The position numbers and the translations under genes were made by a program. From Thermoproteota archaeon (GTDB lineage Archaea > Thermoproteota > EX4484-205 > JAAOZP01), in the NCBI GenBank assembly GCA_049700215.1, contig JBNAVT010000039.1, positions 1-13,580 on the forward strand: a stretch of DNA of 13,580 nt, read 5' to 3'. The notes beneath the pieces were generated by a model. That model ran no database searches. It was not told the DNA's origin and saw nothing but the letters and a program-made list of their open reading frames with translations. Below are positions 110 to 13,518 of the stretch, one piece after another; the first letter of the stretch is position 1, and each line of letters opens with the position of its first letter.

Positions 110-2206
110 TTGATCTTCGAAAGGGTCAGGGAGAAAATCATGGGAGGCAAATGGATACTTGGAGCAGGCTGGGTGGAGTTCGACACTCAAATGATATCCG
201 GCGAGTCGCTTGCCAGGCAACTCTTATACTCTCAAAGGTTTTACAGGGAGAACTTCGGAAGAACTGCTGACGTTCTCTGGCTTCCAGACACTTTTGGATT
301 TACACCAACCCTCCCCCAGGCAGCGAGGCTTGGGGGCGTTAAGGTTTTCGCGACTCACAAGGTCTTCTGGAACGACACGAATACTTTTCCATACAACGTG
401 TTTCTATGGATTGGCCCGGACAACAGTAGTCTTAAGACAGTAGCCTTCGGCCATGGGAAGGGGGGCTACAATTCTGATTTCACGGCAGACAGTGTTTACG
501 AGCAGTGGCAGAACTGGGTCGACAAGAATCACCCTATGCTCTACTCATACGGATATGGAGACGGGGGAGGTGGGCCTACTGAAGAAATGCTTTTGAGGGC
601 GGAGGCAGTGGACTCGCTCCCGATCTTACCGAGGGTAGAGCTTAACGGTTCCCTGGAGTCAGTTGTGCACGACCCAGTGTCTGAAGAATGGAGGGGGGAG
701 CTTTATCTCGAGGATCATAGGGGGGTTTTCACCTCGCATTCGAAGATGAAACTTTTAAACAGGAGGGCCGAGTTGGCTTTAAGGGAAGCGGAAACATGGG
801 CGACTTTTGCCGGAACATATGATAAAGAAAAGTTTTCAAGCCTTTGGAAAACCCTGCTTAAAAACCAGTTTCACGATGTTCTGCCGGGCTCCTCCATAAG
901 GGAGGTTTACAGCGAGGCCTATCCTGAGCTTGAAAACGTGATCGCAGAGGCGGAGAGGATTGCTGAAGAAGCCATGAGGAAAATAGCGGGGGAAGGACGC
1001 TCAACACTGGTTTTCAACTCGCTACCCTGGGACAGGGAGGACTATGTTGTTCTCGAGAAAGAGGTCGAGGGCTCTCAGAGAATCCCTGAAGGCTTCTTGG
1101 CGAAGGCTAGAGCACCCTCAGTCGGGTATGCCCCACTCGCCGCGGCTAAGGCGGCTCCGCAGGTGAAGATCACGGAGGAGAACGATTCCTACCTGGTTGA
1201 GAACAAGTTCTTTACGATAAGGATTTCGAAAAACGGAAGGCTGCTTTCCATATGGGATAAGGAGGCGTCTAGAGAAGTTTTGAAAAACCCTGGGAACAAG
1301 CTGGTTGCTTACGAGAATATTCCGGGTTGGGCTGACGCGTGGAACATTGAGAAGGGCTATAAGGAAACCTCTTTCGAAATAACTGCCTCCGAAAGTTGGA
1401 TTGGCAGCAAAGGCCCGTTAATGGCTTCCGCGTGCTTCACCTACCCGTTCAGGAGATCCGAGATTAGGCAGGAGATCAGGATATACTCCGACTCTAGGAG
1501 GATAGACTTCAAAACCACTATTGGCATGAAGGACAGGGAGCTGCTGGTTAAGACATGGTTTGACTTTGAAGTGAACGCGGAGAAGGCTGTTTCAGACGTT
1601 CCGTTTGGAGTAACTGAGAGACCAACCGCAAGAAACACTTCGTGGGAGAAGGCTAAATACGAGGTGGCGATGCAGAAAATGGTTGACCTTTCTGAGCACT
1701 GTTATGGTGTAGCATTGTTGAACGATGGGAAATACGGGGTCTCAATAGAAGGCTCTTCAATAGGGCTTTCACTCACCAGGACGCCTGTTTTTCCAGATCC
1801 TTCAACCGATCTCGAGGAGACCGCCTTCACATACTCGATATATCCCCACACGGGAGACTGGAAAGAGGCGGGAGTATTAAGGAGGGCTTACGAGCTCAAT
1901 GTACCCTTGAGAGTGGTCAAGGGAAGGAAAGATAGTAAAAGCTTCTTGAAAATAGGCTCCGACAATCTGATGCTTGAGGCTGTGAAAACGCCGGAGGATG
2001 GAGACGGTATTGTTCTAAGGCTTTACGAGTTCTATAATGCAAGGGGCAAGACGCGTATCAATCTTGCAATTAAAGCGAAAAGCGTAGAATCCGTAGACCT
2101 GCTTGAGTCAAACACCGTCAACAGAGACCTAAGGATAGATAGAAACGGTTTAGAGTTTACATATTGCAACAGGGAAATAATCACTTTGAAAATACGCGGG
2201 CACTAA
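110..2206 (+). CDS. Glycoside hydrolase family 38 alpha-mannosidase, N-terminally truncated (possible pseudogene or assembly junction)
   Basis: GH38 motifs are present: GWVEFD..SGESLARQ, nucleophile motif WLPDTFG, YGYGDGGGGP, GELYLEDHRGVFTS, NQFHDVLPGSSI, and C-terminal GVALLNDGKYG. In-frame homology extends upstream of the TTG to about position 50 (PFKYIQSAAIYYDWIKREEP), with an in-frame TGA at 32-34. The N-terminal H-x-D zinc-binding motif is missing. GGAGG at 100-104 precedes the TTG at 110. Confidence 0.9.
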   Translation: MIFERVREKIMGGKWILGAGWVEFDTQMISGESLARQLLYSQRFYRENFGRTADVLWLPDTFGFTPTLPQAARLGGVKVFATHKVFWNDTNTFPYNVFLWIGPDNSSLKTVAFGHGKGGYNSDFTADSVYEQWQNWVDKNHPMLYSYGYGDGGGGPTEEMLLRAEAVDSLPILPRVELNGSLESVVHDPVSEEWRGELYLEDHRGVFTSHSKMKLLNRRAELALREAETWATFAGTYDKEKFSSLWKTLLKNQFHDVLPGSSIREVYSEAYPELENVIAEAERIAEEAMRKIAGEGRSTLVFNSLPWDREDYVVLEKEVEGSQRIPEGFLAKARAPSVGYAPLAAAKAAPQVKITEENDSYLVENKFFTIRISKNGRLLSIWDKEASREVLKNPGNKLVAYENIPGWADAWNIEKGYKETSFEITASESWIGSKGPLMASACFTYPFRRSEIRQEIRIYSDSRRIDFKTTIGMKDRELLVKTWFDFEVNAEKAVSDVPFGVTERPTARNTSWEKAKYEVAMQKMVDLSEHCYGVALLNDGKYGVSIEGSSIGLSLTRTPVFPDPSTDLEETAFTYSIYPHTGDWKEAGVLRRAYELNVPLRVVKGRKDSKSFLKIGSDNLMLEAVKTPEDGDGIVLRLYEFYNARGKTRINLAIKAKSVESVDLLESNTVNRDLRIDRNGLEFTYCNREIITLKIRGH

Positions 2207-2211
2207 CCTAC

Positions 2212-3492
2212 TCAGGGGGTTTCAGTTCTCCAGACAGCGTAAAGCTCCTGTATAACGTCTTTATCAGCGCCGTCAAAGTTCCAGTATACTATGCCGTCGG
2301 CACGCCCGCGCGCTGCAGATTTAACGCTTTCAACGAAGAACTCTCTGCCAGCCATAGAGATGTTTGAAATACGTTCACCAAGCAGATAATGCACAGAGTC
2401 TGTGCGGAGAACCAATACAACCGGCCATATTCTGGCCTTCCCAACATTCCAGTAGGAGATTTTCCGGAGACCTGCCTCTATCGAACTTGAAGGCAGTCCT
2501 GAAAGCCTTGTCTCGTCGTAGTTACGCGGCTTAACAATGGTGTTCAATCCCGTGGCTACGTAGTAAAACTGGCTGAGAACATCCTTGTCGACACCGTAGG
2601 CACGGCTTAGCTCCTTGACCGCCGTTAAGCCCTCCCACTGCATCCAGTCAAAATAAAGCATCGGCTCAATAATGTCAAGAATATTGCTGAGAGCCCTATA
2701 GCTCTGGCCTGCCAGAAGGCTCCACCACGGTGACAAAAGATTAGCGCCAACAACTGTTCCACGGCCGCCTTCCTCCTTTACTGCTGAAGCGAAAGTCTTA
2801 ACAACGTTCTCAATATAATCGTTCCTGTATCTAAACCATTCGAACACCCCTGGAAACTCGTTGTAAAGATCCAGAACATCTGGAGTGCTCAAGGCTCCCT
2901 GCCTAACTATTTCCTCGGAGAAGCCCCCCTTGCCGAGGAAGTCTGTCAGACCCAGCAAGTCTCTCCTGATCGAAACCGGGTCGTAACCCAGGCGCTTCAT
3001 CTCCTCGCAGCAACTAGGGCAGAAACATGTTAGAAAATAGTCTAAGCCAGCCATAGGGCTTTCAAACCTTATGAAGTCAAGCACGATTCCCTCAACCCCG
3101 TATAGTCTGACTAGGCTTCGAAGGTCGGCGACTATTCTTCTTAAAACATCAGGATTTGTCGGACAGGCTCGATCATAATGAGGCTTCCCAAGTATAGTCC
3201 ATGTCGAATACTCTGGGCCCCTTCTAGCTATCTCCGGCCTACTGAAAACAGGGTAGCTTGCGAAAAAGTTTAAGCCCACTCCGCGAAACTCCTCGACAAG
3301 CCTCTTAAGATCCGCGTATGATTCTTTCTCAAAGTTTTCCGGGAGACACCTTACACCATTATAGAGCTCCCTAGCCTCCTCCGGGAAAACAGGAAGATGC
3401 GTATGCACATACTCTACGCCATACTCTTCCAGAAGGCGGCTTCCATACTCCTTCAGAGCCTTATGGCTGATGAAGGCACCTATCGGCTTCAT
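2212..3492 (-). CDS. Uncharacterised glycoside-hydrolase-like TIM-barrel protein (GHL10/DUF187-like) with Cys cluster
   Basis: 426-aa ORF with motifs ACPTNPDV, YGVEGIVLDFIRF, CFCPSCC, EWFRYR, DIIEPMLY and ADGIVYW, which are typical of GHL10-like (beta/alpha)8 barrels. Its start overlaps the upstream stop (ATGA at 3489-3492). Confidence 0.7.
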   Translation of the reverse strand: MKPIGAFISHKALKEYGSRLLEEYGVEYVHTHLPVFPEEARELYNGVRCLPENFEKESYADLKRLVEEFRGVGLNFFASYPVFSRPEIARRGPEYSTWTILGKPHYDRACPTNPDVLRRIVADLRSLVRLYGVEGIVLDFIRFESPMAGLDYFLTCFCPSCCEEMKRLGYDPVSIRRDLLGLTDFLGKGGFSEEIVRQGALSTPDVLDLYNEFPGVFEWFRYRNDYIENVVKTFASAVKEEGGRGTVVGANLLSPWWSLLAGQSYRALSNILDIIEPMLYFDWMQWEGLTAVKELSRAYGVDKDVLSQFYYVATGLNTIVKPRNYDETRLSGLPSSSIEAGLRKISYWNVGKARIWPVVLVLRTDSVHYLLGERISNISMAGREFFVESVKSAARGRADGIVYWNFDGADKDVIQELYAVWRTETP

Positions 3493-4622
3493 TTCTTAAC
3501 CGCCTCCGAAATCTTAACAATCCTGTTCTTCTCTTCCTCGCGGAAAGAAAAGAAGTCGAGCCCATCTAAGCCTGTTTCAGCAGCCAGCTTAACAGCCTGC
3601 TCGATATGCGGGTCGTCCAGCATCAAGATTGGATGGAGCTCGCTCCTTCCCGCTATAAGCCTTTTAGCAGACTGAAGCTCTGTTTTGATGGAGGAAAGAG
3701 GCAGACAGTCTTCAAAAAGCCTCCTGATGCTTGTCGGATACTCCTCTCCCCGGAAGCCGAAAATCTCGTAGAGCGTTTCCAAAAACATGCTTTCAGACAG
3801 CCAGGGGTTCCAGCGGAGCAGCTCCTCAGCGATTTTAGCCAGCTCAAAGTTGAGGCAGGCTACCCCACGCCCCCTCCTGTAAACCATGGGCTTCACGAAA
3901 TCCAGGTAGCGCCAAAGCTCCTGATAGTTCTGGCCGACTAGAAAAGCTAGTGAAGGAGTGAAAACATAGGCACCGAGGCAAGCCTTCCTGCTGTAGGTCT
4001 TGACCACGTTCCTGGTTTCAACAATAAACTCTGTTACACAATGCTCCCTGAACTCAAGCCAATCGAGCAGGGCACGCCGCCTCGTGACAAGATCCAAGAC
4101 ACCTACTGGAGAGGAACGGTATGCTTGCAAAACCTCCCAAACCCGCTTAAAATCGTAGAAAGCGTCAAGCATCTTTTTAACTGATTCCCTCATCTCTATG
4201 AACGGGTAGCCGTATTCCCCAGCTTTACTTCTACAATTGTCGCAGAAACATGTGGCGAAAGCCTCGATCCCACTGCCCATGGACGCAAAACGGATTCCGT
4301 CGAGCAAAATACTACTAACCTCGTGTTTCTCAACGATCTCGGAAACCTGGCTGAGGGTTCTGCGCCTTATGTCAGGATTATTCGGGCACCCGGATCCGAA
4401 CCAGACGTGTTTCTTACCATACGGGTCCTCCGCTAGGAGCCTTGGTTCCCGAGGCTCGTTGTCAAGCCGAAAAGCCCCGATGACGACGTGAACATTCAAA
4501 CCCTTATCCAGCAGTCCTTTGATTAACTCAGGATCATAGCCAACGACAACATCCTTAAAACCCTTTTCAAGGAGGAAATCCGCGTATTCGAGACGCGGTA
4601 TTCCGAACATCCAGAGCCTCAA
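3489..4622 (-). CDS. Uncharacterised glycoside-hydrolase-like TIM-barrel protein (GHL10/DUF187-like), paralog of 2212-3492
   Basis: 377-aa ORF with a TTG start preceded by GGTG. Motifs GCPNNPDIR, ILLDGIRF, CFCDNC, DWLEFR, GQNY, DFVKPMVY and LDGLDFF parallel those of the downstream gene in the same order. Confidence 0.7.
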   Translation of the reverse strand: MRLWMFGIPRLEYADFLLEKGFKDVVVGYDPELIKGLLDKGLNVHVVIGAFRLDNEPREPRLLAEDPYGKKHVWFGSGCPNNPDIRRRTLSQVSEIVEKHEVSSILLDGIRFASMGSGIEAFATCFCDNCRSKAGEYGYPFIEMRESVKKMLDAFYDFKRVWEVLQAYRSSPVGVLDLVTRRRALLDWLEFREHCVTEFIVETRNVVKTYSRKACLGAYVFTPSLAFLVGQNYQELWRYLDFVKPMVYRRGRGVACLNFELAKIAEELLRWNPWLSESMFLETLYEIFGFRGEEYPTSIRRLFEDCLPLSSIKTELQSAKRLIAGRSELHPILMLDDPHIEQAVKLAAETGLDGLDFFSFREEEKNRIVKISEAVKK

Positions 4623-4794: not shown

Positions 4795-4845
4795 GGAAAG
4801 TAATTTTTAAAACTTCTGTTTAAACCTCTCAGTCTAAACCGGTGG
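4795..4845 (+). promoter_or_regulatory. Putative archaeal promoter (BRE/TATA) and RBS of the GH2 gene
   Basis: Purine-rich GGAAAG, then TTTTAAAA (4805-4812) and a second candidate TTTAAA (4819-4824). GGTGG at 4841-4845 lies 5 nt before the ATG at 4851. Confidence 0.45.
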
Positions 4846-4850
4846 ACAGC

Positions 4851-7580
4851 ATGCTGGCAGGAAGCTGGACAATAGGGGCAGAGGTCAAAGGCTTCGCGTC
4901 GAACGTTAAGCTCCCTCTCAAACGCGTTATCAACCTGAATGATGGCTGGATGTTTACAGTCGACCCGGAGGGGAAGCTTAACCCGGGGACCGTCCGCTCA
5001 GTGAAGGAGGCGAGAAGGGCTAGAGCAGGCCTACCCTGGGAGGCTCTGTTCCCAGACCTTATAGATTACGACGGGGTTGCATGGTATTGGCGTAGCTTCA
5101 GCGTCCCGTGCAGGCTAGAGGGTAAAAGAATTATTCTAAGATTCGACGCTGCTGATTACGAGGCTAGAGTATGGTTGAACGGGGTGGAGCTAGGCTCCCA
5201 TGAGGGAGGCTACACCCCGTTCGAGTTCGATGTGACGAGCATCGTAAAATTCGGCGGAGAGAATGAGCTCACGGTTAGGGTTTACGACCCTAAGGATTGC
5301 TCTGAAATCCCCAACGGCAAGCAGTCTCACTACTGTAATATCGGCGGCCTATGGCAGGGGGTCAGCCTCCTAATCCGGGAGAAAGTTTACGTGCATTCAG
5401 CATTCATTCTGCCAGACATCGATGAGTCGACAGTCAGGGTCCGCATAGTTCTCTCTCACGTTGAGAAGGCTCCTGAGGAAGGGCTTAGACTAACACTGAG
5501 GATTTCTCCAACCGGGGAGGAGAAAATAGTTAAAATAGTTAAGGACAAATCTGTTTACGAGGCGAAGATACCCATCGGGGAGCTGAGAAAATGGTCTCCA
5601 GACTCTCCTTTTCTCTACAGGCTTGAAATCCTTCTCTCCGGGGAAGGGGTTGAAGAAACCTGTTTCATAGACTTCGGCATGAGAAAGATAGAGGCGCGCG
5701 GGAATAAGATTTTCCTTAACGGCGAGCCCGTTTACCTCATTGGAGCACTCGACCAGGATTTCTACCCGGATGTAATATACGGCACGCCTTCAGACGAAAC
5801 GCTGCACGACCAGTTTCTCAAAGCCAGAGAACTTGGACTCAATTTTCTGAGGACACATATTAAGATACCGTGTCCAAACTACCTTGAGTGGGCGGACAGG
5901 CTTGGAGTAATGCTTTGGATCGACTTCCCGAGCTTCTACAGGTTCACCGTGGAGGCGAGGGAAAGGATGAGTAGGGAGCTTGAAGAATGGGTTTGGAGGG
6001 ATTTCAACCATCCGTCAATCTTCTGCTGGTGTCTGGTTAACGAGGAGTGGGGTGTCCCGCTCGCCGAAGACGAGGAGGCGAGAAAGTGGCTCCGCGAGAT
6101 ATGGCACACTGTTAAAAGGCTTGATCCCACTAGGCTTGTCGTCGATAATTCTCCCGCGAACGCGGGGCACGTTGTAAGCGATATTGAGGATCAGCATGTT
6201 TACATGGCTACTCCCGATCATGCTCGCGAGTTCGAAAACTGGGTGAATGATTTCTCCAAACACCCGGCTTGGACGTTCAGGTTTCCCGAGTCTGAGAGAA
6301 GAGGCTTCGAACCCTTAATGGTTTCAGAGTTCGGCAGCTGGGGGCTTCCGGATGTTGAGGAAATCCTTCGCTACTATGATTGGAGAGACCCGTACTGGTT
6401 TAACCAAGCGAGCTACGGTGGGCCGATCCGAACTGGTGTTAACGAGTTCTTCAGACTAGGGCTGGACGAGGCCTACGGCTCGTTGAGGAAGCTGGCGGAA
6501 GCCACTCAAAAACATCAGCTTGACTCTCTCAAGTTCCAGATTGAAACAATGAGGCTTCACCCCGAGATAATCGGCTACGTGATAACCCAGTTTACAGACT
6601 TGAACAGTGAGAGCAACGGCCTCATGGACATGTGTAGGGGAGTTAAGCTTCTACACCGCTTCATGAGGTTCTTCCAGGCGCAGGACGTTGTCGTAATAAG
6701 GCCTGGGAAATGGAGCTGTCTCGAGGGCGAGGAAGCCCGAGTGAAAATCTATGTTTCAAGGTTTTCCGCTCAAGAGCCGAAGGCTGTTGAATGGTGGGTT
6801 GAGAACACTCCCGTAGGCGGTGTTTTAAAGCCTGTTAGCGTTGAGAGGGCTTGCTGCACCGAGGTTGGTGAGGCAAGGTTCAGGATTCCAGAAGCCGGGT
6901 GGCCGGGTAGGCTGAAAATATGGGCAAGGCTGCTCGACACCCATGGGAGAGAGGTGTGTCGAAACTATCAGGAGATTCTGGTTCTCCCATCCTGGTCCGT
7001 CAGGATTACCGGGAGAATCAGCGTGTTCGGGGCTGACGCAACCCTCACGGAGAAGATTAGGGAAACAGGCTTAACCATTGTTGAGCCCAGCCAGTCCAAC
7101 GTAGCTGTGTCTCTAGGAGTTAACGAAGACGCTTTCAACTTCGCCGAGAAAGGAGGCAGGGTGCTCTTCCTGCTTGAGGACGCTGAGGCAGGGTCCACCA
7201 TGCCCGGTGGAGTCCGGCTTGCGGAGAGACGGGAGAAAGGTCGCTGGGGAGACTGGTGCACCGCGTTCCTATGGCTTAAGAAGAATGTTGCGAGCAGGCT
7301 GTTCTACGAGGGCCACCTTGGGATGCCGTTTATAGAGTGCATCCCCAGCATGGTTCTAGAAGGGTTGAGCCCCAAGGATGCTAGAAGGGCTTTCGGGGGA
7401 GTTTTCATCGGCTGGATGAGGGAGCCGGCTGCCACAATACTCCCCGTGGAGACGGGGAAAGGGCTTGCCGTCCTCTGCACCTTCAGGCTGGTGAAAAACC
7501 TGGTTAAAGACCCGGTTTCAACCGCACTCTTCTGCTCGCTGATCGACTTAATGTTTTCAGGAAAACTGGAAAGCGTTTAG
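4851..7580 (+). CDS. Glycoside hydrolase family 2 protein (beta-galactosidase/beta-glucuronidase/beta-mannosidase family) with C-terminal extension
   Basis: GH2 sugar-binding domain motifs AWYWRSF, RFDAADYEARVWLNG and HEGGYTPFEFDVT. TIM-barrel motifs LNGEPVYLIGALDQ, GLNFLRTHIK, NHPSIFCWCLVNEEWG (acid/base Glu) and PLMVSEFG (nucleophile Glu). I prefer the ATG at 4851 over the GTG at 4842 because that GTG lies inside the RBS-like GGTGG. No obvious signal peptide. Confidence 0.93.
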   Translation: MLAGSWTIGAEVKGFASNVKLPLKRVINLNDGWMFTVDPEGKLNPGTVRSVKEARRARAGLPWEALFPDLIDYDGVAWYWRSFSVPCRLEGKRIILRFDAADYEARVWLNGVELGSHEGGYTPFEFDVTSIVKFGGENELTVRVYDPKDCSEIPNGKQSHYCNIGGLWQGVSLLIREKVYVHSAFILPDIDESTVRVRIVLSHVEKAPEEGLRLTLRISPTGEEKIVKIVKDKSVYEAKIPIGELRKWSPDSPFLYRLEILLSGEGVEETCFIDFGMRKIEARGNKIFLNGEPVYLIGALDQDFYPDVIYGTPSDETLHDQFLKARELGLNFLRTHIKIPCPNYLEWADRLGVMLWIDFPSFYRFTVEARERMSRELEEWVWRDFNHPSIFCWCLVNEEWGVPLAEDEEARKWLREIWHTVKRLDPTRLVVDNSPANAGHVVSDIEDQHVYMATPDHAREFENWVNDFSKHPAWTFRFPESERRGFEPLMVSEFGSWGLPDVEEILRYYDWRDPYWFNQASYGGPIRTGVNEFFRLGLDEAYGSLRKLAEATQKHQLDSLKFQIETMRLHPEIIGYVITQFTDLNSESNGLMDMCRGVKLLHRFMRFFQAQDVVVIRPGKWSCLEGEEARVKIYVSRFSAQEPKAVEWWVENTPVGGVLKPVSVERACCTEVGEARFRIPEAGWPGRLKIWARLLDTHGREVCRNYQEILVLPSWSVRITGRISVFGADATLTEKIRETGLTIVEPSQSNVAVSLGVNEDAFNFAEKGGRVLFLLEDAEAGSTMPGGVRLAERREKGRWGDWCTAFLWLKKNVASRLFYEGHLGMPFIECIPSMVLEGLSPKDARRAFGGVFIGWMREPAATILPVETGKGLAVLCTFRLVKNLVKDPVSTALFCSLIDLMFSGKLESV

Positions 7581-7651: not shown

Positions 7652-9076
7652 CTAGAAAGACAGCAATACTTGCCAGATGAAAAGATATCCCAGCGAGTCG
7701 ATTTCCTCCCAGACTCTTCTAAATAGCGTCTCGTCTCCAGAGATCGCTGCAATCTCCCTGCGTTTCTCATCCCAAGGTATGCAGACTCCCGGTTTTACTT
7801 TCAGACTAAGACCTGCCGCCGGCTTCCGCTCAACACCCCCCTCCCCCCGGGTATGATGCTTCAAGCCTTCAGAACACAAGTCTCCGTATTTTCCGTAGCT
7901 ACGTGTAAACTCAGTCATCGCCTTCACGTTTTCAACCTTAGCATCATTCTGAATTATGGCTGACGCATCCATGATGTACCCCCCGTCGGAAGCAATACTG
8001 TCAATGATTTTCTTACAGTATCGGCGCACCTCGTCGGGCGTCCCGAGGGTGAGCAGCCAGTTAGGCAGGCCCCCACTCAGACAGAACTTACGCCCGAGTT
8101 TCCTATGCGTCTCTGAAATATCACTCCTATCGATGTGGAAGACTATACTGCCCTCAGGCAATTCGGCGAAACTGTCTAGGTGCGGGGTCCAGTCTCCCTC
8201 CGCGTAGAAAAGCACCCGGAGCCCGTGAGACCAGAGCTCCTCAATAATTGGTTTCAACGTGCGCCAGTGAATTTTTTCAAAATGATCCATGCTGACGAAG
8301 GGCACGGTGCTGCGATGCATCCAGAAGCCTATTGGAACCTTTTTCTCCGGATCAGCAGTCATGCGGGCAACTTGAGTCAAATGTGGGGCGAGAGCCTCGC
8401 ATGCTTCAAGCACTTTCCCAGGCTGCCTGTGAAGATCCTTGGCTAAACCAATATACCCGCGGAGCTTGTCGGCTATAATATCGAGCGGAGCCTTGAGAAT
8501 ACCTGCTATAGCGGAGACGGTTCCAGCCTCCCTCCTCATCCTTTCAATCTGAGATCCGAAAGCGTTAAAATAATCGCTCATCGCCATAGCTCCTTTTACG
8601 AGCGCAAGCCTGCTGCGGTAGGAAGAGCAGGGTCCCTCTGCGGAAAACTCGCTGGAGACACGGGGAAGCCATACGTTGTAAAGGAACGATGTAGGGTCGT
8701 CTATCAGCAGATTATACTCCTCCGGCTTCATGAACGCCCTCTGCTCAGGCGGCTCAAGATACTGGAAAGCCGTGTCAGGAGGGATATCGAGGCCTGGTAT
8801 AGCGTAGTATTTCAGGCCGAGGGCCTGCGTGAGGCCTGTCCAAACATAAACCATGTTGGCGACCATCGCGTCCCAGTCAAAATCGCTAGCGCACTTCAAA
8901 ACAGCCTCGAAAGCCTTCCTGTAGTCGTGCGTCACCTCTTGACAAGTATAGCCCGCGTACTTTGCAGTAAACTCGGCGACAAAGGGACGTATCGGAATGC
9001 AATCCGGTTTCTCATTACGCATTGCAGTCAAGTAGCGTTTTAAACGCTCTTGGTAAACATGTTCCTTCTCACCCAT
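7652..9076 (-). CDS. Uroporphyrinogen-decarboxylase-fold protein, most like MtoB/MtvB-type corrinoid-dependent O-demethylase (methyltransferase I)
   Basis: 474 aa with UroD/COG0407-fold motifs: KPDCIPI, APLDIIADKLRG..GLAKDL..QPGKVLEACE, SMDHFEKIHWRTLK, LFYAEGDW, CLSGGLP..LL..GTPDEVRRYCKKIID and GGYIM. It has the FQYLE..FMKPEEY..LIDDPTSFL...WLPR insertion I associate with MtvB/MtoB. It lacks the H-x-C zinc motif of MtaA/MT2 (FYAEG in its place) and the WxMRQAGR motif of true HemE. A G-rich RBS (GGAGGGGG) lies upstream. The fold call is confident, the subfamily call less so. Confidence 0.8.
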   Translation of the reverse strand: MGEKEHVYQERLKRYLTAMRNEKPDCIPIRPFVAEFTAKYAGYTCQEVTHDYRKAFEAVLKCASDFDWDAMVANMVYVWTGLTQALGLKYYAIPGLDIPPDTAFQYLEPPEQRAFMKPEEYNLLIDDPTSFLYNVWLPRVSSEFSAEGPCSSYRSRLALVKGAMAMSDYFNAFGSQIERMRREAGTVSAIAGILKAPLDIIADKLRGYIGLAKDLHRQPGKVLEACEALAPHLTQVARMTADPEKKVPIGFWMHRSTVPFVSMDHFEKIHWRTLKPIIEELWSHGLRVLFYAEGDWTPHLDSFAELPEGSIVFHIDRSDISETHRKLGRKFCLSGGLPNWLLTLGTPDEVRRYCKKIIDSIASDGGYIMDASAIIQNDAKVENVKAMTEFTRSYGKYGDLCSEGLKHHTRGEGGVERKPAAGLSLKVKPGVCIPWDEKRREIAAISGDETLFRRVWEEIDSLGYLFIWQVLLSF

Positions 9077-10149: not shown

Positions 10150-11292
10150 TCAGAAGACTGATGAAACCCTTAGCCTCCTACCGGTTCTCGAAGACTGTAT
10201 CGACTTTATCATTATTTCGCTAACATGAAAGCCCCACTCTAGGCTGGGGAGAGGATCCTTATCGTTTACTATGCACTCGAAAAAGTGCTCCGTGGAAGCC
10301 CTATAATAGTTCCAAGGTGGGAAATCCTGCTTGGGTATGCAGTACCAGCCGTCCGGCGAGTAATACTTGCTATCCCTACGCTTCGTCATAACGGATATTG
10401 CCGCCGGCCCACCTATGAGTAGAGCACCCTCACTCCCGTAGATCTCTATGTCAGGCATGTTTCCAACACCAGTCCTGAGGCCGTCGGGAGTCACGAAGTT
10501 CGCGATGACGCACCCCAGGCTTCCGCTCCTCATGTCGAGCAGTGTAAACGTGTTGTCCTCCGCCCGCATCCTTATCCTTTTACTTGGCTTCGCAGCAGCA
10601 AGCTTCGGCCAGAATGACTCATAGGGCTTATGGGAAAGATGCTCCGTGAAAAACTCGTCTGGAACTATGAATCTATCCGGTATAGATATTTCCGCCATCC
10701 CAGATACTGAGGAAGCAGGGCCGAGGAGGAAGGTTAGCGCAGCTATCTGGTATACGCCGAGGTCAAAAAGAGGGCCACCTGCTTGCCTGGTGAAGAAAGT
10801 CTCCTCCCCCCAGGTCGGCGCTCCCCTGCCCAGCCCCGCTCTAAACCAGTAGATTTCCCCTATGGTTCCCTCCTCCAGTATGCTTTTAGCCCTTAGGTAG
10901 AGGGGGCTCATCTGTACGTTCGGCTCCACAAGCGCCTTGACACCTGCTTTCTTAACCGCGGTAAAAACCTTCCGCGCATCCCTCATGTTCGTAGCCAATG
11001 GTTTCTGAACCAAGACATGTTTCCCAGCCCTAGCAGCCTTCGCAGCCTGGTCCGCATGCATACCCATGCCTGACAGTATGAAAACAGCTTCAACATCAGA
11101 TTTCTTCAGCATCTCGTCGACATCCGTATAATATTCTTTAGCACCCCATAGCTCCATGCTTCTCCTAGCCCTCTCCTTAATCCTGTCGCACGTGGCCACT
11201 AGCTCGCCCTTCTCAACTATCATTGGAAGATAGGCTTCGTTGGCGATGACTCCACACCCTACAACGCCACACTTCACCTTCCCATCCCCCAT
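10150..11292 (-). CDS. Gfo/Idh/MocA family NAD(P)-dependent oxidoreductase
   Basis: Rossmann motif KCGVVGCGVIA, plus AARAGKHVLVQKPLA, GTIGEI, GGPLFDLGVY and IEIYGSEG. I moved the start from 11448 to the ATG at 11292 (380 aa) because it is directly preceded by GGTGAGGAG, has a TATA box about 36 nt upstream, and the extra 52 aa show no family similarity. Confidence 0.92.
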   Translation of the reverse strand: MGDGKVKCGVVGCGVIANEAYLPMIVEKGELVATCDRIKERARRSMELWGAKEYYTDVDEMLKKSDVEAVFILSGMGMHADQAAKAARAGKHVLVQKPLATNMRDARKVFTAVKKAGVKALVEPNVQMSPLYLRAKSILEEGTIGEIYWFRAGLGRGAPTWGEETFFTRQAGGPLFDLGVYQIAALTFLLGPASSVSGMAEISIPDRFIVPDEFFTEHLSHKPYESFWPKLAAAKPSKRIRMRAEDNTFTLLDMRSGSLGCVIANFVTPDGLRTGVGNMPDIEIYGSEGALLIGGPAAISVMTKRRDSKYYSPDGWYCIPKQDFPPWNYYRASTEHFFECIVNDKDPLPSLEWGFHVSEIMIKSIQSSRTGRRLRVSSVF

Positions 11293-11337
11293 TCTCCTCA
11301 CCCTTGCTGTGCGAATCGGCGAGGATTTATTTAAAGC
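11293..11337 (-). promoter_or_regulatory. TATA box and RBS of the Gfo/Idh/MocA gene
   Basis: Minus strand reads GCTTTAAATA (11337-11328) and GGTGAGGAG just before the ATG at 11292. Confidence 0.55.
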
Positions 11338-11549
11338 TATCTCATTATTAATTTTAAGGATGAAAAGAAGGCTCCTCGTCCCTGAACCACATACTCCACT
11401 GCCCCGGCTCAACTTAATTAACGTAGCATCCGACTTCTCACTCGACAACGAGGAAGCATGCCGAAGGGATTTTTCGCCTAACGGGCGGAGCCCGAATGAT
11501 AAGGACTGGCCTCGTCATGATGGAAAGGGCTTACGGGCAGTGCTCGCGC

Positions 11550-11587: not shown

Positions 11588-12316
11588 ATGAAAATCAAGT
11601 ATGAGGAAATGACTCCTAAAGAGTTTCTTGAGGCGGTTGAAAAAATGCCTGTCTTCATAGTTCCGACAGGGCTTCTCGAGTGGCATGGCGACCATCTCCC
11701 ATTGGGGCAAGACGCGTTAAAAGCCTACGGCATATGTCTGCGAGTAGCTGAGAAGCTTGGGGGAGGAGTGGTTCTTCCCCCCAACTATTGGGGGAGACCC
11801 GGTTTTTCAACGTATGTGGGAACCCTGACTTTCAGCGACGGGTTGATTCGAACCCTCTTCTGGGAGCTTTTCGAGCAACTCAGGAAGGTTGGGGCGAAAT
11901 TGATACTGGTCGTTACAGGGCACTATGGTCCCTGCCAAGTAGATTGCCTTAAAGGGGTGGCTGAGGATTTCAACAGGTGCCATCCAGACGTTTGCGTCAT
12001 GGTTCAACCCGAATACGAGGGTGTCGAGGTTAACGGGGAAGTGCCTGCAGACCACGCTGGCAAATGGGAGACCTCCATGTTCTGGTACATGTTTCCCCAG
12101 CTTACAGCGCTTGAAGAATTTAAGCCCGGGAGTGTTAAGGTGCACACCTACCCAAATGCGCCATACAACTATTATCGTGAAAGCCCAGTGTGGGAGTGGA
12201 AGGAGGACATTAGGGTGGTCTCCTCCCCGCAGCTCGGGAGGGAAGCGGTAGAAACCATCGTGGACCATTTGGCTGAACTGGTTAAACGGAGGCTGGAGGA
12301 GTTGAAAAAACCCTGA
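11588..12316 (+). CDS. Creatininase / creatinine amidohydrolase family metalloenzyme
   Basis: Signature motifs PTGLLEWHGDHLPLGQD (E-x-H-G-x-H-L-P-x-G-x-D), VTGHYG (variant of NGHGGN) and DHAGKWETS, plus N-terminal YEEMTPKEF and C-terminal SPQLGRE. Confidence 0.9.
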   Translation: MKIKYEEMTPKEFLEAVEKMPVFIVPTGLLEWHGDHLPLGQDALKAYGICLRVAEKLGGGVVLPPNYWGRPGFSTYVGTLTFSDGLIRTLFWELFEQLRKVGAKLILVVTGHYGPCQVDCLKGVAEDFNRCHPDVCVMVQPEYEGVEVNGEVPADHAGKWETSMFWYMFPQLTALEEFKPGSVKVHTYPNAPYNYYRESPVWEWKEDIRVVSSPQLGREAVETIVDHLAELVKRRLEELKKP

Positions 12317-12321
12317 GGCTG

Positions 12322-13518
12322 TTAAGCCCTCCTCCTTATCCCGGCGACGATGATGAGGCACGCTAGGAACATTAAGACACCCATTGTACTGAACATAAAC
12401 CGGTAGCCATAGGCTTGGCTAAGCATGCCGATCGACATTGGAGCAAGCATGCTCGCTATGTTCCAGGAGGAGTTGAAAAGACCTAGGGCAAAACCCCTTT
12501 TATCTTCACCGACGAGTTCAGAGGCTAGTGCTGAACTGGCTCCTGAGAAAGCACCCCAGACAAAGCCGTAGAGAGCCATGGCGAGCAGAGCCCCCTCAAA
12601 ACCGGTGGTCATGGAATTTATGAACATGTAGGCCCCGCAGAGCACGTAGGCAACCAGAACGATGGTTTTACGCCCAAGCCTATCCGAGAGGTGTCCGAAG
12701 AACACGTTGATCGGTATCTCAAGCCAGCTGGTGAGGCTCAGCAGCAGCGTGGCCGTTATCATGCCGAGGCCCAGCTCGAAAGCATAGAACATCGGCACAT
12801 ACACGTTTTTAGCGAAATCGGCCATGAAGAAGATAACGCCTCCGGAGATAAACGCTAGAAAGGGGGTTCCTAGGCTGAGGATTGAGGCTGGAGAAAACCC
12901 CCCACCTTTCTTCTTCACACCTGAGGCACGGCTGTCTCCAACCTTTAAAAACAGGTGAACGAGGGTGAGCGAGGCGAAATAGAGGAGTGAGCAAAGACCG
13001 AAAAAGTATCCTCCACCCAACTCGTTTATAATGAACCCTGTGAACGCGACTGAAACAGCCCAACCAAGGGAGGCGGCTGACCAAAAAACACCCATCGACC
13101 TGCCGCGATTCTTTGTCGAGGAGACTTCTGACAAGAGTGCCATTGCAGCCGGGTAGGATGCTGAACCAACAAAGCTCGTTGTAACGAGGAGGACTGCAAG
13201 AACAAGCCTGTTCTTTAGCAAAACCATAGAAAGGTATCCGAGCGCGTAGCCCGCGGTCCCGAGCTTCAGGAAAAACAACCTGTTCATAGCCCTGTCCGAC
13301 AAGTATCCCCATGTTACCTGCCCTATGAGGCTTGACACCGCTATGGAAGACAGTAGCAGGTTGATGGAACCCCCGTCAAACCCGTTTGCAGAGAGGTATA
13401 GGGGAGTCCCTGGTACTAAAAGCCCGGAGGCAGCCATGAACAGTATGTTGTAAGCAAAGATGACGAGCAATGGGCTGAGACGAGTTTCCCCCGCGATATT
13501 TCCTTTCACGAGGCCCAT
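12322..13518 (-). CDS. Major facilitator superfamily (MFS) transporter
   Basis: 398 aa with about 12 hydrophobic segments. MFS motif A appears in both halves (WGYLSDRAMNR and FGHLSDRLGRK), along with NRGRSMG and KRGFALG. Confidence 0.93.
   Translation of the reverse strand: MGLVKGNIAGETRLSPLLVIFAYNILFMAASGLLVPGTPLYLSANGFDGGSINLLLSSIAVSSLIGQVTWGYLSDRAMNRLFFLKLGTAGYALGYLSMVLLKNRLVLAVLLVTTSFVGSASYPAAMALLSEVSSTKNRGRSMGVFWSAASLGWAVSVAFTGFIINELGGGYFFGLCSLLYFASLTLVHLFLKVGDSRASGVKKKGGGFSPASILSLGTPFLAFISGGVIFFMADFAKNVYVPMFYAFELGLGMITATLLLSLTSWLEIPINVFFGHLSDRLGRKTIVLVAYVLCGAYMFINSMTTGFEGALLAMALYGFVWGAFSGASSALASELVGEDKRGFALGLFNSSWNIASMLAPMSIGMLSQAYGYRFMFSTMGVLMFLACLIIVAGIRRRA

Follow-up and report, generated by a model that had tools for sequence, protein, structure and literature searches.

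Among proteins of known structure, sequence searches with the protein described here recover a single meaningful relative, CdmB from Acetobacterium dehalogenans (PDB: 9rui), a biochemically and structurally characterized, zinc-free methyltransferase of the corrinoid-dependent type that moves a methyl group from a substrate to a corrinoid protein (methyltransferase 1 or MT1) (PMC13222342). It functions as a chloromethane:corrinoid methyltransferase with a hydrophobic tunnel for haloalkanes and is placed in the UroD superfamily beside the O-demethylases MtoB, MtvB, OdmB and VdmB, being 31% identical to MtoB (PMC13222342). The UroD-type MT1s have a wide substrate range that includes clades of unknown substrate, and that paper makes no mention of sugars, Planctomycetes or Bathyarchaeia (PMC13222342). 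Here we analyse a gene of the same superfamily, located at positions 7652..9076 on the minus strand of a 13,580-nucleotide stretch of DNA from a Thermoproteota archaeon (contig JBNAVT010000039.1 of assembly GCA_049700215.1), the whole of which is hereafter called the window. Its 474-residue product, P0001, is probably a corrinoid MT1.

P0001 shares with CdmB the UroD-fold TIM barrel and the lack of the zinc-binding H-x-C motif, and would likewise depend on an MtaC-like corrinoid protein encoded as a distinct polypeptide, together with an activator and a second methyltransferase (MT2). It differs in that CdmB ends about 77 residues before the conserved-motif tail of P0001, and in that the cdmBCA cluster holds its own partners whereas the gene for P0001 has none alongside, its neighbours being sugar enzymes. 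MtoB, MtvB, OdmB and VdmB belong to the same superfamily and follow the same four-part logic of MT1, corrinoid protein, MT2 and activator, although this likeness was judged without direct sequence comparison and P0001 has no aromatic context around it. In the archaeal Mto system the methyl group reaches a pterin through an MtrH-type MT2, and the genome encoding P0001 also has an MtrH-like gene. The genes for O-demethylase MT1s usually cluster with those of their partners (PMC10989822).

A further parallel is provided by MtgBCD of Ruegeria pomeroyi (PMC12478193), as several bacterial carriers of the P0001 family appear to feed methionine synthesis from an alternative methyl donor in a comparable manner. 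In these, a homocysteine S-methyltransferase accompanies a stand-alone corrinoid protein and a reactivation module, next to the family gene or elsewhere in the genome (loci L054 and L068 and genome G009, see below). However, the MT1 of that system is a glycine-betaine enzyme of the MttB family and not a UroD-fold protein (PMC12478193), and the acceptor module of the archaeon that encodes P0001 looks directed to folate (MtrH-like) rather than to homocysteine. The MtgB of Yu et al. is a lignin O-demethylase MT1 of about 300 residues, specific to Bathyarchaeia and without homology to known MT1s (PMC10989822); P0001, with its 474 residues, UroD fold and mostly bacterial carriers, does not fit this description and, on these features, was rejected as an MtgB. 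The same authors report genes or clusters for a 'bacterial-type MT1' in 31 of 297 metagenome-assembled genomes, with no link to sugars in the accessible text (PMC10989822). Brockarchaeota encode MtaB and MttB according to De Anda et al., who postulate an 'undescribed protein' as the MT2 and whose main text does not contain the term 'uroporphyrinogen' (PMC8065059). Targeted searches of open-access main texts retrieved no account of UroD-type MT1s associated with clusters for glycans or sugars, and nothing on corrinoid demethylation of methylated sugars or on UroD proteins of Brockarchaeota.

The neighbours of P0001 recall a different set of systems, namely the sugar pathways in which Gfo/Idh/MocA oxidoreductases and TIM barrels first oxidize and then cleave their substrate: C-glycoside cleavage by DgpA and DgpBC, the BT_2158-type 3-keto-glycoside pathway, levoglucosan degradation by LgdA/B and the IolG/N/O system of Thermotoga. 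The same enzyme types are recurrent neighbours of the P0001 family, and we know of no UroD-fold or B12 component in any of these pathways. In the window itself, the Gfo protein matches DgpA1 at E 3.9e-28 and a TIM barrel that could complete a DgpA/DgpBC-type pair is present, the nearest solved relatives of the latter being only uncharacterized structures.

The UroD-fold protein P0001 and its family

The gene for P0001 begins with an ATG codon, contains no internal stop and matches the Pfam URO-D model with an E-value of 1.6e-25 (90.3 bits against a cut-off of 23.9). Given that 3941 relatives were recovered at E <= 0.001 among 8000 scored candidates, the gene is judged to be real, and both its start and end are judged correct as full-length relatives align from residue 1-5 through 474. 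A scan for promoters and terminators around it returned chance-level results. The protein fails the NCBIfam hemE equivalog (15.8 bits against a cut-off of 302.95), which speaks against HemE, and a regular-expression search (H.C) over its whole length found no H-x-C tripeptide, which speaks against a zinc-dependent MT2 of the MtaA/MtbA type. Thus, the first-pass annotation, which had described an MT1-like UroD-fold gene devoid of HemE and MtaA signatures between a glycoside hydrolase family 2 (GH2) gene and sugar-modifying genes, was correct in this respect. It is also upheld with regard to the likeness to MT1s: in a sequence search of the PDB the sole meaningful match to P0001 is CdmB (E 3.1e-43 over residues 8-72 and 86-397, with an identity of about 30% as counted by eye on the printed alignment), the second match being a histidine-kinase fusion at an E-value of only 0.48. 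A profile of 64 family sequences again retrieved CdmB as the sole match at E <= 1 (E 5.6e-49), and neither the single sequence nor the profile returned a HemE, MtaA or decarboxylase chain. The sequence data, taken together, support the classification of P0001 as an MT1-like UroD-fold protein that is neither HemE nor a zinc-dependent MtaA.

An AlphaFold2 model based on the family alignment (predicted local distance difference test score of 89.1 and predicted template-modelling score of 0.89) displays the UroD barrel, and Foldseek searches with this model against a library reaching April 2026 gave human UROD at 8e-12 and the Methanosarcina mazei methyltransferase 4ay7 at 6e-8, CdmB not being among the returns. 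That the best solved folds are uroporphyrinogen decarboxylases favors an alternative in which P0001 is not a methyltransferase, and is instead a UroD-fold decarboxylase or some other sugar-acid enzyme that works with the Gfo and TIM proteins in a B12-free manner. The low hemE score and the sequence searches, in which CdmB and no decarboxylase was recovered, argue in the opposite direction; we return to this alternative below together with the distribution of B12-related genes.

The barrel core of P0001 (residues ~1-397) is the region that aligns with CdmB, and residues 398-474 constitute a C-terminal extension specific to the P0001 family. In the model this extension comprises a low-confidence linker (401-416) and two helices, and C432, P434, W435, W456 and a C-terminal L-x-S-F are invariant within it across the family. 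Sister groups at 27-43% identity also carry the extension, and many relatives of 385-450 residues (30-36% identity) stop where CdmB stops. H254 and R255 are likewise invariant at aligned barrel positions at which CdmB has P and V, providing a weak hint, from sequence, of a polar substrate.

The P0001 family shows little divergence for its phyletic breadth. The best 120 database clusters are 62-89% identical to P0001 over 99-100% of its length, the mean column identity of the 64-sequence alignment is 66%, and at 50%-identity resolution the family forms one cluster. Among species-representative genomes, 170 stretches encode a relative, of which 80 loci were kept (81 with the window; loci are designated L, genomes G and contigs of the source genome C), with identities to P0001 of 57-89% across archaea and bacteria. 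Seventeen of these loci come from archaeal records (Bathyarchaeia, Brockarchaeota, Thermoproteota and Nitrososphaerota) at 75-89% identity, with one at 62%, and the remaining 63 are bacterial, at 57-69% identity, from Planctomycetota, Verrucomicrobiota, Lentisphaerota, Kiritimatiellota, Hydrogenedentota, Omnitrophota, Ratteibacteria, Armatimonadota, Chloroflexota and some records labelled Nitrospirota. A quick maximum-likelihood phylogeny was computed from the 72 rows that reach 400 residues (9 shorter rows dropped, midpoint root only). In it, 17 archaeal rows form a single clade (Shimodaira-Hasegawa-like approximate likelihood-ratio support of 99) which is sister to a Ratteibacteria/Omnitrophota group (98) and lies among bacterial rows. 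Hence, the family is not an archaeal speciality, most of the carriers found being bacterial and the archaeal genes constituting one clade beside bacterial ones. Within the genus of the source organism, the gene is present in 7 of 16 other species genomes. One contig labelled 'Bathyarchaeia' (L083) groups with a Hydrogenedentota sequence (L080), apart from the 17-member archaeal clade, and so has either been misbinned or acquired the gene in a second transfer. The names attached to 10 distant relatives and to ESM Atlas clusters are merely 'uroporphyrinogen decarboxylase family'. We rate the P0001 family as a separate, very tight clade and a distinct MT1 subfamily whose sugar-enzyme context is recurrent and unusual.

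Candidate corrinoid partners of the P0001 family

The supposition of the first-pass annotation that the corrinoid partners have their genes outside this locus is in agreement with the contents of the source genome (2.09 Mb, 94.6% complete), which has one of each. The corrinoid methyl-acceptor is represented by the sole B12-binding protein of the genome, an MtaC-like protein of 215 residues on contig C4 that combines a B12-binding_2 cap with a Rossmann domain and bears the motif GDLHDIG. The sole RACo-type activator, which contains a 2Fe-2S domain, is encoded 3.4 kb from the corrinoid protein on the same contig, back to back with MtaB (PF12176, E 1.4e-175). The sole MtrH-like gene (304 residues) is situated within the segment C34:10102-14570 (L097) of contig C34, where it is flanked by genes for formate-tetrahydrofolate ligase, FolD, a formyltransferase and 5-formyl-tetrahydrofolate cyclo-ligase, and its product is a candidate methyl-corrinoid:tetrahydrofolate MT2. 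The source genome also has two MttB-family genes, and no pterin-binding (MeTr-type) domain was found in it. The gene order on contig C4 (C4:68257-75463, L096) is RACo/MtaB, a HEPN/nucleotidyltransferase pair (71680-72557), the MtaC-like protein and a Gfo/Idh/MocA gene, followed by a gene of the dihydrodipicolinate synthase family, a dihydroorotate dehydrogenase-like Fe-S protein and a BNR sialidase-like gene.

A comparable set of partners accompanies the family in other genomes. RACo was detected in all 30 of the P0001-family carrier genomes tested, as against 73 of 201 Planctomycetota (71 above the cut-off) and 45 of 151 Verrucomicrobiota in random samples of these phyla. The P0001 family itself is found in just 4 of the 201 sampled Planctomycetota (E <= 1e-60); three of these have a copy at least 59% identical and all three have RACo, and the fourth, with a copy of 36% identity, lacks it. 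A stand-alone MtaC-like protein, 38-95% identical to that of the source genome, is present in 27 of the 30 carriers, with one of the remaining three having only a MetH-sized frame and two showing no match to the MtaC-like query. In genome G020 (L113:70-2124) the MtaC-like domain spans residues 478-682 of a 684-residue open reading frame (ORF), and the corrinoid protein may thus be fused to another domain.

Direct linkage to B12-related genes is sporadic and spans at least three independent lineages, with genes for a corrinoid protein, RACo or a MetH-activation domain adjoining the family member in 7 of 80 loci. In a verrucomicrobial locus (L054) the family gene is divergent from a group that encodes RACo, an MtaC-like protein and a homocysteine S-methyltransferase (PF02574). 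In a locus from the Pirellulaceae (L068) a corrinoid protein and a protein with the MetH-activation domain are followed by Gfo, the family gene, a family 2 glycosyltransferase (GT2) and a 3-keto-disaccharide hydrolase, and in L059 the order is RACo, an AraC regulator and the family gene. In one Ratteibacteria/Omnitrophota clade (L034-L037), a small ORF directly upstream matches Met_synt_B12 barely over threshold, that of L037 being only a 91-residue piece. In addition, B12-binding_2 and B12-binding domains precede the UroD domain within a single polypeptide in the relative P0261 (692 residues, 31% identity, E 5e-41). The Verrucomicrobiales carrier G009 has two UroD-family genes only, of which one is the P0001 homologue and the other (334 residues) is part of an operon (L128:5248-10235) encoding a corrinoid protein, a DUF1638 protein, RACo, this UroD protein and a homocysteine S-methyltransferase, which looks like a split, MetH-like methionine-synthase hub.

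Sugar-enzyme context and the proposed methyl donor

For a census of neighbours, the ORFs called in the 80 loci and the window were clustered by BLAST and the cluster representatives named by Pfam. A Gfo/Idh/MocA gene is near a family member in 22 of 81 loci (8 archaeal and 14 bacterial), xylose-isomerase-like TIM barrels form four clusters covering 12, 4, 3 and 2 loci, and a 3-keto-disaccharide hydrolase (PF06439) occurs in 10. Other recurrent neighbours are a sulfatase (8 loci), aldose 1-epimerase (5), DUF6807 (5) and the DUF6785/6784 membrane proteins (3 each). GH2 (8), the family 38 glycoside hydrolases (GH38; 7), a creatininase-fold protein (6) and a transporter of the major facilitator superfamily (MFS; 5) recur in the archaeal clade only, and this is ordinary synteny among relatives. 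Thus, of the recurrence beside GH2 and Gfo genes that had been anticipated, the Gfo part stands and extends to the TIM barrels and 3-keto-disaccharide hydrolases, whereas the glycosidase part, with GH2 and GH38 confined to 8 and 7 of the 18 archaeal loci, was rejected as a general feature of the family.

Local hidden Markov models (HMMs) detected one or more Gfo, TIM or 3-keto-hydrolase genes within 3 kb in 32 of 81 loci, of which 22 (of 63) are bacterial and 10 (of 18) are archaeal. Around the bacterial members, the density of these genes is 27 per 167 kb within 1.5 kb, as against 2 per 198 kb at a distance of 6-9 kb. Several phyla have same-strand, near-abutting arrangements (gaps in bp in parentheses), such as Gfo(-3)-gene-(2)TIM-Gfo in L074, TIM(43)-gene-(105)Gfo in L047, Gfo(4)-gene in L090, TIM(11/28)-gene in L075 and L079, and gene-(61)Gfo-TIM in L081; in L041, L023 and L080 the family gene is followed by a 3-keto hydrolase. 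An enzyme of the mandelate racemase/muconate lactonizing enzyme (MR/MLE) superfamily is found near a few family members, and GT2 and a DegT aminotransferase near some members or paralogues. A group of Hydrogenedentota-type loci (L053, L060, L062, L064, L067 and L023) is flanked by a protein of ~1040 residues with HZS_alpha, F5/8 type C and cytochrome c domains and by a ~1190-residue CHASE4-PAS-GAF-SpoIIE sensor phosphatase, with 3-keto-disaccharide hydrolase, aldose epimerase and DUF6807 nearby. In three loci of Bathyarchaeia (L022, L028 and L031) HEPN/nucleotidyltransferase pairs, which are toxin-antitoxin-like, lie directly upstream of the family gene.

This context is shared by the UroD paralogues of the source genome. 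Pfam URO-D matches 28 places in it, corresponding to about 26 ORFs that are 20-60% identical to each other, with the closest paralogue of P0001 scoring only 38.8 bits and the H.C pattern present in 6 of the other 25. A Gfo or TIM gene is located within 3 kb of 10 of the 26, a count that none of 2000 random 26-gene sets reached (mean 2.7, maximum 8). By Pfam assignment of 107 ORFs within 3.5 kb, 15 of 20 paralogue loci (L129-L148) have sugar-related neighbours, which include GH4, GH31, GH38, GH57, GHL10, a GxGYxYP protein and CBM96, as well as sugar kinases, aldolases, fucose isomerase, MR/MLE, Gfo and TIM proteins. As UroD genes are thus widely found in carbohydrate clusters, P0001 represents one case of a genome-wide pattern with a single shared corrinoid protein. 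The label of 'orphan' given to it initially therefore holds in the local sense that no partner is adjacent, but not for a genome in which about 26 paralogues share one corrinoid protein. One paralogue on contig C63 (485-1507, L146; 340 residues) has a full-length URO-D match of 200 bits and H-I-C at residue 240, which we take to be an MtaA-like zinc motif, and adjoins genes for an aldehyde:ferredoxin oxidoreductase and a DeoC-Fer4 protein. Another paralogue locus (L137:10275-12851, contig C24) contains an 858-residue radical SAM ORF with a match to an intein-splicing domain (PF14890, E 1.9e-11), which is probably an intein-containing radical SAM gene.

The repeated presence of sugar oxidoreductases of the C3 type, of sugar enzymes with a TIM barrel and of 3-keto-disaccharide hydrolases suggests a methyl donor derived from carbohydrates, and a sugar- or cyclitol-derived methyl ether is the candidate that we tentatively favor, at a probability somewhat short of even. 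The methoxylated aromatics or lignin fragments proposed in the first-pass annotation have to be considered here, in the form of an O-demethylase that would use the same corrinoid chain and act on methoxy-aromatics, including the aglycones of aryl O- or C-glycosides freed by the DgpA-like Gfo and TIM proteins. No aromatic-compound gene is among the recurrent neighbours that would tie the P0001 family to such substrates, the carriers belong to glycan-degrading lineages (many of the archaeal relatives are labelled Brockarchaeota or Bathyarchaeia), the TIM barrel of the window shows no specific likeness to solved DgpB/C, and the family stands apart as its own, very tight clade, whose C-terminal extension is lacking in CdmB. 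Nevertheless, the characterized relatives nearest CdmB (MtoB, MtvB, OdmB and VdmB) all demethylate methoxy-aromatics (PMC13222342), to which P0001 is connected by its identity to CdmB and that of CdmB to MtoB; the Gfo protein of the window is most like DgpA, an oxidizer of aromatic C-glycosides; and phenolate is a chemically easy leaving group. On balance, we retain an aromatic donor as an unlikely alternative to the methyl ether of a sugar or cyclitol.

A corrinoid methyltransferase for some other donor would fit the B12-related evidence (RACo, linkage and fusion) equally well. Such a donor could be a methyl ester, a methyl glycoside, or an N- or S-methyl compound such as a methylated amino sugar or methylthio sugar, and the reaction might even be reversed, with sugars being methylated from methyl-cobalamin. 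The wide substrate range of the UroD-type MT1s (PMC13222342) and the GT2 and DegT aminotransferase genes near some members or paralogues are in keeping with this version; however, the recurrent neighbours look catabolic (hydrolases, transporter, oxidoreductases and aldose epimerase) and P0001 is without the zinc H-x-C motif that activates thiols, and we view this version as quite unlikely.

In the window, the genes alternate in strand, as already noted in the first-pass annotation. Downstream of P0001, a GH2 glycoside hydrolase gene (4842..7580, plus strand) is convergent with it, and is adjacent in 8 of 18 archaeal and 0 of 63 bacterial loci. Beyond it lie a paralogous pair of minus-strand ORFs without a Pfam family (2212..3492 and 3489..4622), syntenic in 6 archaeal loci and with one homologue showing a weak GH42 match (E 7e-4), and a gene for a GH38 alpha-mannosidase-family protein by Pfam (110..2206, plus strand; syntenic in 7 of 18 archaeal loci), the N-terminus of which has possibly been shortened by the ORF call. 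On the other side, the recurrent neighbour with a xylose-isomerase-like TIM barrel (PF01261; 9247..10080, plus strand) is divergent from P0001 across a 170-bp spacer. It is followed by the second recurrent neighbour, the Gfo/Idh/MocA NAD-dependent sugar oxidoreductase (10150..11448, minus strand), whose true start is likely the internal M at residue 53 and whose best matches among solved structures are DgpA1 and DgpA (the latter at 1.1e-24), plus a sugar 3-ketoreductase. Next are a creatininase-fold hydrolase (11588..12316, plus strand), weakly similar to the diketo-inositol hydrolase IolN and syntenic only in archaeal relatives (6 of 18), and an MFS transporter (12322..13518, minus strand), syntenic in 5 of 18 archaeal loci and a candidate importer of the P0001 substrate. 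The NCBIfam matches of these neighbours are all far under the equivalog cut-offs.

A proposed methyl-transfer chain and its implications

The assignment of P0001 as an MT1 draws on its kinship with CdmB, the complete set of partners in the genome, the presence of RACo in the tested carriers, the adjacency of B12-related genes and the fusion to B12-binding domains in a relative. In the scheme that we propose, the UroD-type barrel of P0001 would bind a small methylated compound, from which the Co(I) form of the single MtaC-like corrinoid protein would take the methyl group. The MtrH-like protein encoded on contig C34 would then hand it to tetrahydrofolate for oxidation to formate via FolD and formate-tetrahydrofolate ligase, with the RACo encoded next to MtaB repairing oxidized cobalt. 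In several bacterial carriers, the P0001-type MT1 instead appears to feed a split, MetH-like hub, so that the methyl group would end in methionine. The adjacent Gfo/Idh/MocA and TIM-barrel proteins would either prepare the methylated donor or consume the demethylated product; preparation could consist of an oxidation beside the methoxy carbon to give a keto or enol ether, of which the enolate, as a leaving group, would be comparable to phenolate. The reading as a whole, with P0001 as the MT1 of a corrinoid chain whose partners are encoded elsewhere and whose methyl donor is likely an O-methylated sugar or cyclitol, has in our estimate an even chance of being correct. A more far-reaching version, which we consider possible but doubtful, is that the members of the P0001 family are the first demethylases to use a corrinoid on sugars or cyclitols with methyl ethers, acting on the keto or enol form generated by the Gfo and TIM enzymes, with the ~26 paralogues forming a battery for different methylated carbohydrates that is served by one corrinoid protein.

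Several observations weigh against this proposal. According to Pfam, domains of the B12-binding, RACo, MtrH and pterin-binding types are lacking in all nine ORFs of the window, confirming the absence of corrinoid protein, activator and MT2 recorded at first pass, and 73 of the 80 loci are without a B12-related gene nearby. CobS (PF02654) was not found in the source genome at its 94.6% completeness, and hence the cobamide would need to be imported. RACo is widespread in the sampled phyla (30-36%), and among the archaeal relatives it is present in 7 of 9 carriers versus 6 of 10 non-carriers, a comparison that offers no discrimination and in which the two RACo-less carriers are 70% and 82% complete and some genomes overlap with the 30-carrier set. 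Its co-occurrence with the family is therefore only a test of a necessary condition, in which, moreover, related genomes do not count as independent. With regard to the sugar enzymes, the census used our own ORF calls and HMMs built from the neighbours themselves, and genomes of the Planctomycetes-Verrucomicrobia-Chlamydiae (PVC) group contain many genes of the Gfo, TIM and DUF1080 types. The Gfo and TIM proteins of the window are merely 24-30% identical to the bacterial neighbours, versus 57-69% for the MT1, implying a linkage between families and not between orthologues; a co-transferred module of MT1, Gfo and TIM was rejected on account of these low identities. Chemically, no metal site is evident in P0001, and the activation of methanol by MtaB requires zinc. 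We also know of no corrinoid MT1 that cleaves aliphatic sugar methyl ethers, for which the alkoxide would be a poor leaving group.

The scarcity of nearby B12-related genes, together with the MR/MLE enzyme near a few members and the decarboxylase folds recovered by Foldseek, would be compatible with the B12-free decarboxylase or sugar-acid enzyme introduced above. The occurrence of RACo in 30 of 30 carriers, the 7 loci with adjacent B12-related genes and the B12-domain fusion in a relative are at odds with such an activity, as is the sequence relationship to CdmB, and it appears very unlikely to us.

Methyl ethers of sugars are common in the polysaccharides of algae, plants, cyanobacteria and other bacteria. 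An oxygen-dependent P450 demethylates 6-O-methyl-galactose, and to our knowledge the only described demethylation route for sugar methyl ethers needs oxygen. If the proposed activity is correct, the P0001 family would be the anaerobic counterpart of this P450, by means of which glycan degraders of the PVC group, the Hydrogenedentota and Brockarchaeota-like archaea would turn the methyl groups of polysaccharides into methyl-folate or methionine. It would thereby connect the degradation of glycans with the metabolism of C1 units and methionine, and help explain the presence of corrinoid methyl-transfer genes in non-methanogenic, Brockarchaeota-like archaea. The MtrH-like gene on contig C34 would, in that case, be a likely MT2 for the role of the 'undescribed protein' postulated by De Anda et al. 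(PMC8065059). Were the donor a methoxy-aromatic, P0001 would be an ordinary new member of the O-demethylases. The P0001 family thus offers a concrete candidate for the anaerobic use of sugar methyl groups in uncultured glycan degraders.

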